From an uncultured Acidobacteriota bacterium (GTDB taxonomy: Bacteria > Acidobacteriota > Thermoanaerobaculia > Multivoradales > UBA5704), in contig OY969474.1 of assembly GCA_963700145.1 (NCBI GenBank), positions 4,096,001 to 4,160,000 on the forward strand: a stretch of 64,000 nt of DNA, read 5' to 3'. The translations under genes and the position numbers were made by a program. Below are positions 53,626-58,880 of the stretch, piece by piece. The notes under the pieces are model-generated. The model made no database searches and was not told the DNA's origin. It saw only the letters and a list, made by a program, of their open reading frames with translations. Positions within the stretch are counted from its first letter, which is position 1. Every line of letters starts with the position of its first letter.

Positions 53626-54834
53626 TCAGCCGACCGCGGCCGGCCGCTCCCACAGCTCGCGCACCGCCTCGCGCACCCGGTGGCAGAGCGGCTGCGGCGT
53701 GTAGACGCGGTAGCGGTCGATGCGCGCCAGGTGGCGGATGAACTGCGAGGCCTCCTCCAGCGGCTCGAGCGCGCCGTCGAAGCGGCGCACCAGGACGCGG
53801 CTCTCGCCGAGCCGGTGGGAGTCCTTGGCGGAGTTCGAGACCAGCAGGTTGCCGGCGCCGAAGCGCTCGCGCAGCTCCGGCAGCAGCGCCTCGAAGCGGG
53901 CCTTCTCCTCCGGCGCCAGGTGCTCGCGGGTCTCGAAGGCGAGCGGGAAGGCGTCGCGCTCGACGACGGCGCGCGCGTGCACCGAGCCGGAGCGGCGCAT
54001 CCGCCAGAGCACCGCGACGTCGTCCTCGGCGAGGAAGCGCTCGGGGTCGGCCGGCCAGCGCACCCCCTCCTCGGCGAGCCAGGCGGTCAGGTGGAGCTCC
54101 AGCGCTTTGCCGGTCAGGTTGAAGTACACCTGCGTAAACATGTAGTAGCGCGCCATGACCAGCGCCTCGACCGCGTGGACGCCGCCCTCCTCGAGGCCGA
54201 TCCCCCACTCGCCGCTCGCCGGGTCCTCGACCGGGATCAGCGTGTCAAGCAGGCGCTCCAGGTCGTAGCTGCCGTAGCGGACGCCGCAGTAGAGGCTGTC
54301 GCGCAGCAGGTAATCCATCTTGTCGACGTCCATCTCGCCGGAGACGACCTGCGCGAGCAGGCGCTCGACCGGTCCCTCGCCGCCGGCGAGCAGGCGGGCG
54401 ACGTCGGCGGTCGCCAGGCCGCGGCCGTGCCGCGCGAAGATCTCCTCCATCTCGGGCAGCGCGAGGAGGCGCAGCGTCATCGCCTCGTGGTCGAGCCCGT
54501 GCTCGAAGAGCTCCTCGGCGGAGTGGCTGAACGGGGCGTGGCCGAGGTCGTGGAGGAGAGCGGCGGCGCGCACCAGGCGGCGCTCGCGCGCGTCGCGGGC
54601 GGCGGGCAGCAGTCCCTCCCCCTTGGCGGCGAGCGCGTCGTAGACCCGCCCGGCGAGATGCATGGCGCCGAGGACGTGGCTGAAGCGGCTGTGCTCGGCG
54701 CCGGGGAAGACGAGGAAGGTCAGGCCGAGCTGGTGGATCGAGCGCAGCCGCTGCACCGCGCGGCTCCCCACCAGCGCCGCCTCCAGCGGATCGGCGCGCA
54801 CGAAGCCGTGGACCGGATCGCGGAGGGAGAGCAC
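53626..54834 (-). CDS. HD-domain phosphohydrolase (COG1078/SAMHD1-like dNTPase family)
   Basis: RDPVHG, QRLRSIHQLG, HSRFSH, LLHDLGHAPFSH, DVDKMDYLLRD. Confidence 0.92.
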   Translation of the reverse strand: MLSLRDPVHGFVRADPLEAALVGSRAVQRLRSIHQLGLTFLVFPGAEHSRFSHVLGAMHLAGRVYDALAAKGEGLLPAARDARERRLVRAAALLHDLGHAPFSHSAEELFEHGLDHEAMTLRLLALPEMEEIFARHGRGLATADVARLLAGGEGPVERLLAQVVSGEMDVDKMDYLLRDSLYCGVRYGSYDLERLLDTLIPVEDPASGEWGIGLEEGGVHAVEALVMARYYMFTQVYFNLTGKALELHLTAWLAEEGVRWPADPERFLAEDDVAVLWRMRRSGSVHARAVVERDAFPLAFETREHLAPEEKARFEALLPELRERFGAGNLLVSNSAKDSHRLGESRVLVRRFDGALEPLEEASQFIRHLARIDRYRVYTPQPLCHRVREAVRELWERPAAVG

Positions 54835-54888
54835 GCGGGGAGTCTACCGGGGCGGCGGGCTGCCGCAGAGGCCGGTCGAGGGAGTGCC

Positions 54889-55098
54889 GGGAGCGCTTCC
54901 GCGGCCGCCGCGGCGAATCCCGCGGCGCCCGGCGGATTTCCCCCGCCCGCTGCAGCATGTCCCGCAACGCCCGCGGCATTATCCGCAAACGCCGTGGTGT
55001 GTACCGCCGCCGGAAAAATGTGTATCGCCGCCGCCGCGGCATTTCCCGGAACGCCCGCGGCATCTCCCCCGGCCGCCGCGGTATTTCCCCGAGGTGCC
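54889..55098. repeat. 10-unit imperfect tandem array with exact 21-bp period
   Basis: Units such as GCGGCATTTCCCGGAACGCCC, GCAGCATGTCCCGCAACGCCC, GCGGCATCTCCCCCGGCCGCC. Confidence 0.8.
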
Positions 55099-55280
55099 CT
55101 AGGAAGCGACTTCTCGCCCCGCAAGTGCCTTAGATCATGAGACTTGCCTACACGCGCCGGGGATCCGGGTGACCGGTGTTGGGCAGAGGTGGCGCCGCAG
55201 TCCTTCGGCCTGATCGCCGTCCGGCTCAAAGTCGTCGCCGCTCATCGGGTACGTCGAGGCCGCCGTCCCACCAGTCCTGA

Positions 55281-55433
55281 GCGCTTGCACGCCTCGCCCC
55301 GGCCAAGTGCATGGCGCCGAGTTCATGGCGTGGTGGCTGCGCACGGCGGCGCGGACAAGGTAAGTCAGGCGAAGCTCGTGGATGGAGCGTAGCGGCTGCA
55401 CCGCCCGGCTGCCATCGACACCGCTCCACAGGT
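55281..55433 (-). pseudogene. Decayed duplicate of the 5' part of the HD gene
   Basis: VQPLRSIHELRLTYLV...LGAMHLAG vs VQRLRSIHQLGLTFLV...LGAMHLAG; identical 14-mer TGCATGGCGCCGAG at 54659 and 55308. Confidence 0.8.
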
Positions 55434-55556
55434 GGCGCTGTTGTTACACTAGCCACTGCGGCCGAGGAACGGGACTTCGCTACTGGTCAAAGGCCGGAGA
55501 TACATGCCAACACGGATGGGTTCAGCCTATAGACAGCCACACGAGGCGGCACCTGC

Positions 55557-57128
55557 ATGCCAGTGACCGCTCGTACGATCCTCCGGAGACTGCTTACTAC
55601 TGGGTACTTCCCGCGAGAGCTTCCTCCTACCTTTTCCACGCGCCGCTACGGACTGATCGTGTCGCGCCTATGGAATTCCAGACCAGGTCCCTTTACTTCG
55701 ACTCGAACCACAGCGTCGCCCGCCAAGCACAGCCTGGTCCGCAGCGGACCGCTTCGCCGGCAACTGTCGATACCGAACCCAATCCTCTTCCCGCAGGCAT
55801 GCGATGAGGTCGCGAGTCATTGGGCGACCCTGGAGGCGGCGGCGATGGGGTCTCCATTTACCAGGAGCCGACCAGTCCTTCATAGTAAGGGCGCACGATG
55901 CTTTCTCCCGCTGGTTCCTCGCCAGGGTGATCTAGTTCCTTACAAGGCCGCCGCACGAGCCGGAGCGCGCGTATTAGTTTCCACCGATATCGCTAGATTC
56001 TATGCCTCCATCTATACTCATAGCGTGCCGTGGGCTTTGCACGGCAAGGCTCTTGCGAAGAAGAAGCAACGTGACTACTCGCTCCTAGGCAATCGATTGG
56101 ATAGAGCTCTTCGATTGATGTCGGCCGGCCAGACTATCGGCATTCCTATCGGCCCCGACATCTCCCTCGTAATCGCCGAGACCCTACTGGCGGATGTAGA
56201 CAGGCAGCTCTCGGCGCAGTTTCCTCATGTACAGTTTCTCCGCTACGTCGACGAGTATGAAATTGCCGCAAGGAACCACGAGGAAGCTCAGGCTGCCATT
56301 GCGCAACTCCAACAACTCTTAGCGGGCTTCGAGTTGGAGCTAAATGCGCTAAAGACCTCGCTTCAGACGCTCCCTTGCCGCATCGAACTCCCTTGGGTAT
56401 CTGATCTCCGCTCCCGAAGGATTCGAGCAGCAGTGCCGGCTCAAGCCACGGATCTTGTTGCACTGTTCGATGAGGCGTTCGCCTATGCGCAGAAGCAGCC
56501 AGAGGCACCGGTACTGCGCTACTTAATGGGCAGACTGAAGAATCAACGAGTCGAGCTGCAGAATTGGCGCCTCTACCAGAACCTTCTCCTGCAGTGCATG
56601 ACGGTTGAGCCTGCCACGATTCAGGGCGCGATGACGACTTTGCTTCCACATCTAGAGAACAACTTCGGACTTGAGCGGGGCGCTTTTCTGCGGACGCTGA
56701 ACGGCATCATTGAATACCATGGCCTGCTGGGCCATGGCAATGAGGTCTCTTGGGCTTTATGGAGTCTCATGACCTTGGACCTGAGGATATCGAGGTCGGC
56801 GGTTCGCGCGCTCGAAAAGATGACGGACCCTGCTGTTACCTTATTAGCACTGCATGCGGAGAGCTTAGGGTTGCTTGAGGACCCCCTCGATAAACAGAGT
56901 TGGGTTGCACTGGCAAAGAGAGAGTCTTTGTACGACGAGAACTGGTTGTTGGTGTACGAAGGCGTCAAGAAGGGTTGGTTGCCGACAAATTCGGCTTTCG
57001 TTGAAGCGGATCCTGGATTTGGCTTTCTTTGGCGCCAGGGCGTGGTCTTCTACGACACAGCCGCGATCTTACAACCGAAACCAACAGGAGTTCCGCCCAG
57101 CATCGGAATCGCTCCGAGTTTTTACTGA
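55557..57128 (+). CDS. UG/Abi-clade (defence-associated, DRT-like) reverse transcriptase with helical C-terminal region
   Basis: GYFPRELPP, RRQLSIPNP, DIARFYASIYTHSVPWALHGK, GIPIGP, RYVDE, LELNALKT; visibly lower GC than its flanks. Confidence 0.92.
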   Translation: MPVTARTILRRLLTTGYFPRELPPTFSTRRYGLIVSRLWNSRPGPFTSTRTTASPAKHSLVRSGPLRRQLSIPNPILFPQACDEVASHWATLEAAAMGSPFTRSRPVLHSKGARCFLPLVPRQGDLVPYKAAARAGARVLVSTDIARFYASIYTHSVPWALHGKALAKKKQRDYSLLGNRLDRALRLMSAGQTIGIPIGPDISLVIAETLLADVDRQLSAQFPHVQFLRYVDEYEIAARNHEEAQAAIAQLQQLLAGFELELNALKTSLQTLPCRIELPWVSDLRSRRIRAAVPAQATDLVALFDEAFAYAQKQPEAPVLRYLMGRLKNQRVELQNWRLYQNLLLQCMTVEPATIQGAMTTLLPHLENNFGLERGAFLRTLNGIIEYHGLLGHGNEVSWALWSLMTLDLRISRSAVRALEKMTDPAVTLLALHAESLGLLEDPLDKQSWVALAKRESLYDENWLLVYEGVKKGWLPTNSAFVEADPGFGFLWRQGVVFYDTAAILQPKPTGVPPSIGIAPSFY

Positions 57129-57265
57129 CAGCTGAGTGGCACTGGCGACTCGGTAACGGCCTCCAAGGAATCCAGAAGCTCGTCCCGCCTGATGCCAGAG
57201 GTGCTCAGCAAAGAGATCCGTTCCATTAAGCGGATTGCGGTCGCCGACCGTTGACCGGCCGAGAA

Positions 57266-57961
57266 TCAGTTCTGGTCGGACTTGCCGGCCAGGTGCCGGT
57301 AGGGGCTGAGGAGGTCGACGACCTGGCGGCGGCCGCGGAGGATGGCGAGGAGTGTCAAGGCGCGCTCGGGGACGGCCTCGGTCAGCAGGTGGAGCTTGCG
57401 CAGCACCGGCAGGTCGAGCTCGACGGCGATGCGGTTGACCGTCTCCTCGAAGCCGCAGCGGCCGGCCATGTCTTCGAGCTCCTCGCCACTGAGCGGGAAG
57501 CTCTCGCCGAGGTCCTCGGCGAGGGAGTGGGCGAGCGAGAGGACGGCGCCGCGCACCACCTGAAGCCCGGCGTCCTCCTCGTTGAGCGGGGGATCGAAGA
57601 CCGGGCGCACCACGCCGTGCCGCACCGGCTCCCCTCCGGCCTCGGCGGTGACCTGGAAGCGGAACTCGCCGTAGAGCAGGACGTTGATGCGGCCGTTGGC
57701 GAGGAACTCGACGTCCTCGAGGCGCCCCGCGGTGCCGCCGGGGAAGATCTCCGGCGGGTCGCTCGCCACCCGGCCCTGCGGCGGCTTGAGCAGCACGATC
57801 CCGACGCGCCGCGACTCCTCGTCGCCGTCCACCAGCTCGCGCAGCAGGCGGCGGTAGCGCGGCTCCTCGATGTGCAGCCGCAGGTGCGTGCGCGGGAAGT
57901 GGACGACGTCGGGCAGCGGGAACAGCGGGAGGCGGGTGCCGGCGCTCGGGACCTCGCTCAT
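57266..57961 (-). CDS. Lon protease N-terminal substrate-binding domain protein
   Basis: LPLFPLPDVVHFP...LHI.EPRYR.L motif; GGAGG RBS. Confidence 0.88.
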   Translation of the reverse strand: MSEVPSAGTRLPLFPLPDVVHFPRTHLRLHIEEPRYRRLLRELVDGDEESRRVGIVLLKPPQGRVASDPPEIFPGGTAGRLEDVEFLANGRINVLLYGEFRFQVTAEAGGEPVRHGVVRPVFDPPLNEEDAGLQVVRGAVLSLAHSLAEDLGESFPLSGEELEDMAGRCGFEETVNRIAVELDLPVLRKLHLLTEAVPERALTLLAILRGRRQVVDLLSPYRHLAGKSDQN

Positions 57962-57995
57962 GGACCTCCAACATAGCAGGCGACATGCCAGGAGC

Positions 57996-58880
57996 GTGAG
58001 ACAATCCGCGGCCGTGCGTCGCACCGCCGTAGCCGCCGCCCTGCTCCTCGCGATCGCCGCTCCGGCCGCCGCCGACGACTTCGACGCGGCGATGGCGAGC
58101 GGCGCGGCGGCGTGGACCCGCCGCGCCCAGGGGCACCGCGGCAGCCGCGCCCAGCCAGCGGCGATCGAGCAGGCCGTCGCCGCCTACGAGCGGGCGGTGG
58201 CGGCCCGTCCCGGCGACGTCGCCGCCCGCTCGCGCCTGCTCCAGGCCCTCCACTTTCGCGGCGAGCACGCCGCCCCCGACCGCGACGCCCGGCGCCGCGC
58301 CTTCGAGCGCGGCCGCGAGATCGCCGAGGCCGGGCTCGACCGCCTCGCCGTCCCGTCGGGAGGGCGTGCGCGCCTCGACAAGATGACGCCGGCCGCCGCG
58401 GCCCACGCGCTCGCCGGCACCGCCGGCGCCGCCGACCTCCATCTCTGGGCGGCGGTCCACTGGGGGCTCTGGGGGGACGCCTTCGGCCGCCTCGCCGCGG
58501 CGCGCCAGGGGGTGGGCGACAAGGTGCGCCGCTACGCGGAGATCGTCGTCGCGCTCGACGAGCGGCACGAGGCCGGCGGCGGCCACCGCGTTCTCGGCCG
58601 CCTCCACGCGCTGGCGCCGAAGGTGCCGCTGGTCACCGGCTGGGTGGACCGCGAGAAGGCGGTCGCGCACCTGCGGCGGGCGGTGGCGCTGGGCCCCGAG
58701 GAGCCGTACAACCAGCTCTTCCTCGCCGAGGCGCTGCTCGAGCACCAGCCGGCGAAGAAGGCCGAGGCCGTCGCCATCCTCCGCCGACTGGTCCAGGCGC
58801 CGCCGCCCGCCGACCGCGCCGTCGAGGTCGAAAAGGTGCGCGAGGACGCCCGCGCGCTGCTGCAGCAGCACGGAGGTTAG
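57996..58880 (+). CDS. Exported TPR (TatT-like) protein
   Basis: Signal peptide, HWGLWG, HRVLGRLH..AP..P, TPR helices. Confidence 0.7.
   Translation: MRQSAAVRRTAVAAALLLAIAAPAAADDFDAAMASGAAAWTRRAQGHRGSRAQPAAIEQAVAAYERAVAARPGDVAARSRLLQALHFRGEHAAPDRDARRRAFERGREIAEAGLDRLAVPSGGRARLDKMTPAAAAHALAGTAGAADLHLWAAVHWGLWGDAFGRLAAARQGVGDKVRRYAEIVVALDERHEAGGGHRVLGRLHALAPKVPLVTGWVDREKAVAHLRRAVALGPEEPYNQLFLAEALLEHQPAKKAEAVAILRRLVQAPPPADRAVEVEKVREDARALLQQHGG

Follow-up and report, generated by a model that had tools for sequence, protein, structure and literature searches.

In a 64,000-nucleotide stretch of the genome of an uncultured Acidobacteriota bacterium (Multivoradales, UBA5704; GenBank assembly GCA_963700145.1, contig OY969474.1, forward-strand positions 4,096,001 to 4,160,000; this whole stretch is the window, and coordinates refer to it), we analyzed a reverse transcriptase (RT) gene that lies between a gene for an HD-domain phosphohydrolase and a gene for a Lon N-terminal domain (Lon-N), and which profile, structure and tree assign to the DRT6 (UG12) family. 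In the list of open reading frames (ORFs), the gene is an intact ORF of 523 aa at positions 55557-57128 of the plus strand, with an unbroken frame. When GC content was computed in 500-nt windows, it was 0.54-0.60 over the RT ORF versus 0.70-0.81 around it; the gene as a whole has a GC content of 0.565 and a GC content at third codon positions (GC3) of 0.618, compared with GC3 values of 0.973 (HD) and 0.945 (Lon-N) in its two neighbors. An initial annotation, made from the letters alone, had described a 523-aa RT, AT-richer than its host, between HD and Lon-N genes, and the ORF, the drop in GC and GC3 and the Pfam domains of the two flanks agree with this description. The features of the gene itself are as follows:

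55557..57128, plus strand: DRT6 (UG12) RT of 523 aa, fingers and palm followed by a C-terminal alpha-helical repeat domain (assigned by profile, structure and tree)
55986..55988, plus strand: Asp144, the catalytic aspartate of motif A, invariant in 115/115 aligned family members
56019..56021, plus strand: His155, equivalent of His160 of the DRT4 RNase dyad (aligned by phmmer to H160 of the UG15 entry 21ou)
56100..56102, plus strand: Asp182, equivalent of Asp192 of the DRT4 RNase dyad (phmmer alignment), invariant in the family
56121..56126, plus strand: Ser189-Ala190, where the family has a Gln-Asp pair before motif B (alignment)
56244..56255, plus strand: catalytic box (Tyr230-Glu233) that reads YVDE where YxDD is usual, codons TAC GTC GAC GAG
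57087..57125, plus strand: C-terminal tail GVPPSIGIAPSFY, residues 511-523, disordered (predicted local distance difference test score, pLDDT, <50) and conserved in a family subgroup

The best PADLOC model for the protein was Drt6 (PDLC03748; E 1.4e-149, 497 bits, residues 8-505), and other models of the UG/Abi classification gave 251 bits (UG15, Drt4, PDLC03752), 195 bits (RT_UG30) and 155 bits (UG14), an order of models that recurred in 8/8 close relatives. Two control RTs of the UG15 type, taken from the same order as the host (L104 and L106), scored best on PDLC02178 and PDLC03752 (415-446 bits; PDLC03752 by itself, 415-418 bits), with Drt6 at 276-286 bits. A phmmer search of the PDB matched entry 9wy8 across residues 9-503 (E 2e-73), and UG15/DRT4 across residues 10-285 only (E 1.5e-21). 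An AlphaFold2 model built from 115 homologues reached a mean pLDDT of 94.8 and was helical from about residue 293 onwards. Foldseek ranked 9wy8_A first, an entry titled 'Cryo-EM structure of the hexameric DRT6' (E 1.3e-34, template modelling (TM) scores 0.89/0.93), with a root-mean-square deviation (rmsd) of 2.1 Å and 30% identity over 500 columns; the TM scores of other entries were ~0.80 for DRT4, 0.68 for AbiK, 0.61 for Abi-P2 and 0.32-0.34 for DRT9, the last at rank 28 and below. Finally, in a FastTree phylogeny that held 43 sequences, took two UG15-best ones as its root and carried UG labels that come from hidden Markov model scores and not from the published reference tree, the RT fell deep within the UG12-best sequences.

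Profile, solved-structure match and tree thus all point to the same place: the RT is classified as a member of DRT6 (UG12) and not as an undescribed module. The motifs on which the initial annotation had relied are present (GYFPRELPP at residues 16-24, LRRQLSIPNP at 66-75, FYASIYTHSVPWALHGK at 148-164, GIPIGP at 195-200 and a terminal PSFY) and, along with the AlphaFold2 model and the Foldseek matches, they uphold its description of a UG/Abi-type RT with a helical C-terminus. The resemblance to UG28/DRT9 that it proposed did not stand, as the TM score of DRT9 entries is 0.32-0.34 and the 25 best of the 61 PADLOC matches do not include Drt9. It had also put forward an undescribed defence module, a view that it made dependent on the protein lying outside the characterised DRT subtypes; we found it inside one of them, DRT6. 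DRT6 has no standard non-coding RNA (ncRNA).

That the RT is instead a member of DRT4 (UG15) is almost certainly not the case, though two older PADLOC models that bear the name Drt4 come near the Drt6 score on this protein (PDLC02177, 485 bits; PDLC02179, 467 bits) and the folds are alike (TM 0.80). Across all UG12-type proteins tested, however, the scores of these two models follow those of the Drt6 model and sometimes exceed them (L100, P0030), and they are low on true UG15-type proteins. The UG15 model PDLC03752 gives only 251 bits on the query, the NCBIfam Drt4 equivalog gives 238.5 bits, under its cut-off of 450, the match to UG15 in the PDB is confined to residues 10-285 (E 1.5e-21), and the priming Tyr125 of DRT4 is not kept. 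Given that PDLC02177 and PDLC02179, despite their Drt4 name, award UG12 proteins scores close to those of the Drt6 model, automatic annotation may label DRT6 proteins as DRT4.

Compared with the DRT6 of Sphingopyxis sp. (PHR10625.1; PDB 9wy8), the RT is homologous over its whole length (E 2e-73), shares the fold (TM 0.89/0.93, rmsd 2.1 Å), is of similar size and has the same arrangement of an RT followed by alpha-helical repeats, and it too is a single gene with no ncRNA or partner. Both proteins carry the motif A Asp, the first Asp of motif C, motif B and the THS.PW block. The two proteins differ in that they share only 30% identity, in that the query has YVDE where the reference has YVDD, at the residues of the published dead mutant, and in that Ser-Ala takes the place of Gln-Asp before motif B. 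The tail that follows the alignment spans about 20 residues in the query versus about 69 in the reference, by hand count, and the host of the query is a high-GC, soil-type bacterium in which no defence island surrounds the gene. DRT4 (UG15; E. coli; PDB 9vdo/9vdv, 9l9s and 21ou) is likewise a class 1 stand-alone RT with this domain organisation (TM ~0.80), and in the alignment the residues of its RNase dyad, His160/Asp192, pair with His155/Asp182 of the query, which are invariant; by analogy, the two probably share a logic of constitutive single-stranded DNA (ssDNA) synthesis combined with sensing of a phage single-stranded DNA-binding protein (SSB). In contrast to this likeness, identity to DRT4 is 21%, sequence homology is detectable in the N-terminal half only, the DRT4 priming Tyr125 is not conserved in the query, the N-terminal insertion of DRT4 with its nucleotide-positioning Gln23 is missing, and the query falls below the NCBIfam Drt4 cut-off. 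AbiK and Abi-P2 (lactococcal and P2-prophage, respectively) resemble it in their protein-primed, template-independent architecture and helical C-terminal domain (TM 0.61-0.68), yet identity is 14-15%, AbiK primes at Tyr44 (as given in the title of the Y44F-variant entry 7z0z) and Abi-P2 has another oligomer state. With DRT9 (UG28), the likeness is limited to the RT core of palm and fingers and to a role in defence: TM scores are 0.32-0.34, identity is 13%, and DRT9 depends on an ncRNA as the template for its poly-dA product, whereas no such RNA was detected at the query locus.

At the level of single residues, the query keeps 108 of the 117 alignment columns that are conserved at 85% or more, and D144, D232, H155, D182 and motif B are invariant. 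His155 and Asp182 are both present in 115/115 aligned DRT6-family proteins. Their pairing with the residues of DRT4 was counted by hand, in a count that reproduces the published positions Y125, Y238, D240 and D241. Because these two residues align to the DRT4 dyad and are invariant, DRT6-type enzymes are predicted to share the RNase site. A cluster of Ser and Thr at positions 99-104 is also conserved, position 104 being always S or T and position 102 being S in 106/115 proteins, and column 120, next to Leu119, is variable (H in 20, Y in 17 and V in 15 of 115). The Ser/Thr cluster and the terminal Tyr523 are candidates for the priming site. At the C-terminus, the tail peptide G-V-P-P-S-x-G-x-A-P-x-F-Y is kept in a subgroup of the DRT6 family down to ~40% identity, and its last conserved residue is by turns Tyr or Ser, so that the peptide ends in Phe-Tyr or Phe-Ser. 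This disordered peptide may serve in docking, sensing or priming.

The initial annotation had noticed that the active site differs from the usual one, and this difference is real: it is the YVDE box. Its counterpart in the alignment to 9wy8 is YVDD, whose two Asp residues are numbered D223/D224 in the characterised DRT6 (by a hand count of the offset). Of the best 120 database relatives, 113 have D at position 233, 4 have E and 3 have N, and D also occupies this position in 87/87 further loci. All four E sequences belong to one six-member clade with 100/100 support, within which D and E are interleaved, so that three or more changes are required; D is the residue in all 31 other sequences of the tree. 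The same clade stands apart before motif B, where Q is found in 102/115 and D in 100/115 family members at the two positions of the Gln-Asp pair, and where the pair is lost in 6/6 members of the clade. All other polymerase motifs are invariant within the clade. We searched the literature for an equivalent Asp-to-Glu change in other RTs and found no paper on it. The RT is an ordinary DRT6 copy save for this rare Asp-to-Glu change in its catalytic box, and we read Glu233, from the alignment and the tree, as a tolerated, clade-specific variant of an enzyme predicted to be active.

Beyond the RT gene, the locus comprises the following features:

53626..54834, minus strand: gene for an HD-domain phosphohydrolase, the resident left flank, outside the system (Pfam HD and HD_assoc_2; core genome)
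54848..55093, no strand: native GC-rich spacer (GC 0.748) holding a degenerate repeat array with CGCGGCATTTCCC-type units; aligns to the HD/Lon-N spacer of G003
55094..57250, plus strand: low-GC foreign insertion carrying the RT, ~2.2 kb, borders approximate (GC 0.587)
55298..55413, minus strand: frameshifted remnant from the 5' part (codons ~17-62) of a diverged HD gene, lying on the same strand as the resident HD gene (blastn, tblastn)
55414..55556, plus strand: untranslated leader/promoter region of the RT, 143 nt, no structured RNA detected
57103..57117, plus strand: weak terminator-like hairpin and then a T-run, overlapping the stop codon (consensus scan)
57266..58024, minus strand: gene for a Lon N-terminal (substrate-binding) domain, the resident right flank, core genome (Pfam LON_substr_bdg, 9.5e-20)

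The status of the segment as an insertion was determined by a DNA search of 30 relatives followed by local alignment. In three genomes of the same genus, G004, G001 and G003, the alignments to the HD and Lon-N genes lie 72, 30 and 16 bp apart, respectively; homology to G004 and G001 ends at 54847 (at 54980 in G003) and restarts at 57265-57268. In 14 further relatives the two alignments are at most 111 bp apart, as counted by hand from the search rows, and two more relatives have gaps of 386 and 515 bp; the HD/Lon-N locus was not found in G002. The insertion is therefore missing in 3/3 same-genus genomes with the locus assembled and in the 14 further relatives, and the RT part had no nucleotide-level match in any of the 30 relatives searched. 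The RT-bearing segment is an insertion between two core genes that are adjacent in relatives. The initial annotation had drawn the island at 54889..57265: the insertion is genuine, but the part at 54848-55093 is a native repeat spacer, which leaves ~55094-57250 as the foreign DNA. Within the island we found no target-site duplication, terminal inverted repeat, tRNA or integrase-like ORF as a sign of mobility.

The resident HD gene has 68-97% nucleotide identity to its counterparts in 29/30 of the relatives searched, with short matches only in G002, and its protein gives a weak and partial match to the PADLOC dGTPase model (32.5 bits). A second, decayed copy of HD sequence lies inside the insertion. 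This remnant is 76.7% identical across 120 nt to positions 54649-54768 of the resident HD gene (blastn), and tblastn recovers HD residues 17-42 (65% identity, E 1e-5) and, in another frame, residues 32-62. The remnant shares 71-79% identity with HD genes of relatives, against the 95-97% that the resident gene shares with its counterparts in G004 and G001, and so does not represent a recent duplicate of the resident gene. Most likely, judging from these identities, it was brought in together with the RT, which in the donor would likewise have adjoined an HD homologue. No donor with an RT beside an HD gene was found, and no HD or Lon-N homologue stood beside the RT in 98 other loci. We also considered a functional link between the RT and its HD neighbor and rejected it: the HD gene is part of the core genome, is next to Lon-N in relatives and is not paired with the RT in the 98 loci.

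The initial annotation had further regarded the leader of the gene as unusual. No structured RNA was detected there, and what occupies the region upstream is the decayed HD fragment. A search of positions 54600-57500 against Rfam returned no match at E<=1, and folding of 55414-55560 yielded a minimum free energy of -44.6 kcal/mol versus a mean of -46.5 for shuffled sequences (z +0.47), i.e., no excess of structure. The non-coding parts of the island had no nucleotide similarity to the 98 other loci. With no Rfam match, a z of +0.47 and an HD pseudogene fragment in its place, an ncRNA leader was rejected. A scan of the leader for one promoter type, the sigma-70 consensus, gave no match. At the other end of the gene, the hairpin with its T-run is weak evidence of a terminator, because the consensus scan returned 4 sites where 1.9 were expected.

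The claim that the RT has no partner ORF held up as well. The six small ORFs of the island had no PADLOC match, and their one Pfam match (E 0.08) reached 13 bits against a cut-off of 25. When the 518 neighboring ORFs found within 3 kb of the gene at 80 metagenome homologue loci were clustered, the largest cluster covered 7/80 loci. Recurrent neighbors across the homologue loci were genes of type I restriction-modification (RM) systems, HmaA/HmaB and a type II RM pair: type I RM operons hold or adjoin DRT6 homologues at 7 loci (L029-L031, L039, L056, L076 and L093), Hma helicase/methylase systems occur with them at 3-4 loci (L053, L063, L066) and the type II RM pair at 3 loci (L057-L059). As these systems recur and yet no cluster exceeds 7/80 loci, DRT6-family RTs are often found in defence islands, without a fixed partner.

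The RT is a single-copy gene in its own genome. At E<=1e-30 it was detected in 14 of 300 genomes of the order (the host genome, G000, included) and in 0/4 of the same genus. Among the other matches in the order, only five are candidates for membership in this family, four with 52, 40, 38 and 35% identity and a fifth, partial one with 33%. Eight matches fall in one genus (g18) at 30-34% identity to the query, L104-L109 among them; these make up 8/57 genomes of one family in the order, and the two that were scanned (L104, L106) are of the UG15/DRT4 type. In the protein database, 671 relatives scored E<=0.001 among 8000 candidates, the best at 66% identity, with P0002 and P0003 at 64-66%. A scan of genome contigs recovered loci of 26-28% identity only, and the best locus of a metagenome scan had 52%. 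Distant relatives were found on 10 plasmid records, all at <=33.8% identity, and no RT relatives were found in the phage records searched. The GC3 contrast and this sporadic distribution indicate that the RT gene was recently acquired by horizontal transfer.

The biology of the family is described in several reports. UG12, i.e., DRT type 6, was found to confer moderate protection against T5 and ZL-19, which was abolished by mutation of the RT active site (Mestre et al. 2022, PMC9226505). The Sphingopyxis DRT6 is described as an oligomeric abortive infection system that synthesizes DNA without a template and stays covalently linked to this product. The T5 DNA-binding protein ORF55 activates the system, which proves toxic when sbcB is knocked out, and a D223A/D224A mutant is named (Wang et al., PMC12783706). 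In a 2026 preprint, DRT6 is placed in class 1 as a hexamer with covalently attached ssDNA, and the RNase site of DRT4 is given as His160 and Asp192, activated by phage SSB and dGTP (10.64898/2026.10.21.760695).

Our reading, to which we assign a probability of roughly 0.8, is that 55557-57128 encodes a single-gene anti-phage RT of the DRT6 (UG12) type, a class 1 member of the UG/Abi group, that arrived by recent transfer on ~2.2 kb of low-GC DNA and in which Glu233 is tolerated. The family, fold, single-gene architecture, insertion and conserved residues were observed at this locus. For the oligomer state, polymerase chemistry, trigger and defence phenotype, we draw on the work on DRT6 and DRT4. 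By this analogy, the RT protein would assemble as a hexamer, prime on a hydroxyl residue of its own and polymerise ssDNA without a template or an ncRNA, a product that the 3'-5' exonucleases of the host would normally clear. Upon infection, an SSB-like protein of the phage may bind or shield the ssDNA, and a build-up of toxic ssDNA, activation of the putative RNase site (His155/Asp182), or both, would then result in abortive infection.

Several observations weigh against this reading. The second Asp of YxDD is a Glu, and the only dead DRT6 mutant reported alters both Asp residues (D223A/D224A), and the clade lacks the conserved Gln189-Asp190 of the family. Identity to the characterised DRT6 is only 30%, Leu119 stands where DRT4 has its priming Tyr125, and the gene does not sit in a defence island here. 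In addition, the ExoI/SbcB C-terminal domain PF08411 was not found in the host genome, a single contig that is 95% complete by markers, in a search in which the E. coli control was positive; hence the control circuit of E. coli, where this exonuclease is reported to restrain the products of DRT4 and DRT6, cannot be assumed for this host, and another exonuclease would be needed.

Two other explanations of the gene were considered. It might be a DRT6-derived variant with altered chemistry, in which the loss of Gln189-Asp190 and the flips between Asp and Glu shift the handling of metal or nucleotides and lead to a different ssDNA product (in length, composition or metal dependence), or in which polymerisation is attenuated and the His155/Asp182 RNase-type dyad serves as the effector. 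The initial annotation, too, had suggested a different DNA product, for which the D-to-E change would be the basis. We consider this unlikely, even though YxDE is confined to 4 of 120 relatives in one clade with 100/100 support, is seen in 0/87 other loci and has changed to or from YxDD at least three times, and even though the Gln-Asp pair, kept in 100-102 of 115 family members, is gone in 6/6 of the clade, and H155 and D182, aligned to the DRT4 dyad, are invariant. Glu retains the carboxylate, and the remaining polymerase motifs are invariant in the clade, which argues for the usual, working polymerase; no RNase activity is reported for DRT6 in the literature searched. Moreover, the sisters P0002 (DE) and P0003 (DD) sit on short branches of 0.05-0.08, which suggests that D and E are near-neutral alternatives. 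For the clade as a whole, it is similarly doubtful that its six members represent a functionally shifted DRT6 lineage, for which the tail, with its Phe-Tyr or Phe-Ser end, might be a priming or sensor element.

Alternatively, the gene might be a non-functional passenger, i.e., an inactive, decaying fragment of transferred DNA with a crippled active site and no promoter. The substitution in the catalytic box would fit such a passenger, as would the isolated position outside any defence island, the sigma-70-like promoter that was not found, and the decayed HD fragment beside the RT, on account of which the transferred DNA already held a pseudogene. We nevertheless regard this as highly improbable, as the 523-codon frame is intact in a gene that is still un-ameliorated in the host genome, and 108/117 conserved columns are kept. 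Glu is also found in three full-length relatives of 54-66% identity and is therefore not what would be expected of a private inactivating mutation, and the promoter scan was limited to one promoter type.

Only two features are unusual here: the YxDE clade, and the solitary setting of the RT, which shares a spacer of the core genome with a fragment of an HD pseudogene. The locus offers a clean example of a predicted one-gene defence system in such a spacer with no recognisable mobility gene, and the natural YxDE clade makes it possible to ask how strict the requirement for the second catalytic Asp is in class 1 UG/Abi polymerases. The invariance of the DRT4 RNase dyad in 115 DRT6-family proteins, in turn, predicts that DRT6 is an RNase, an activity that is not reported in the literature searched.

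As a side observation, the native spacer at 54848-55093 carries a repeat array made of a direct-repeat family (D1) and an inverted pair (I1). At 54895-55093 the array consists of a 64-nt family with 3 copies, a 42-nt inverted pair and CGCGGCATTTCCC-type units, and copies of it occur elsewhere in G000:C1 (at ~3157577, 3261687 and 3583315-3583481) as well as in the same-genus G003 and G004. From this distribution, the GC-rich array looks like a genus-specific family of intergenic repeats.

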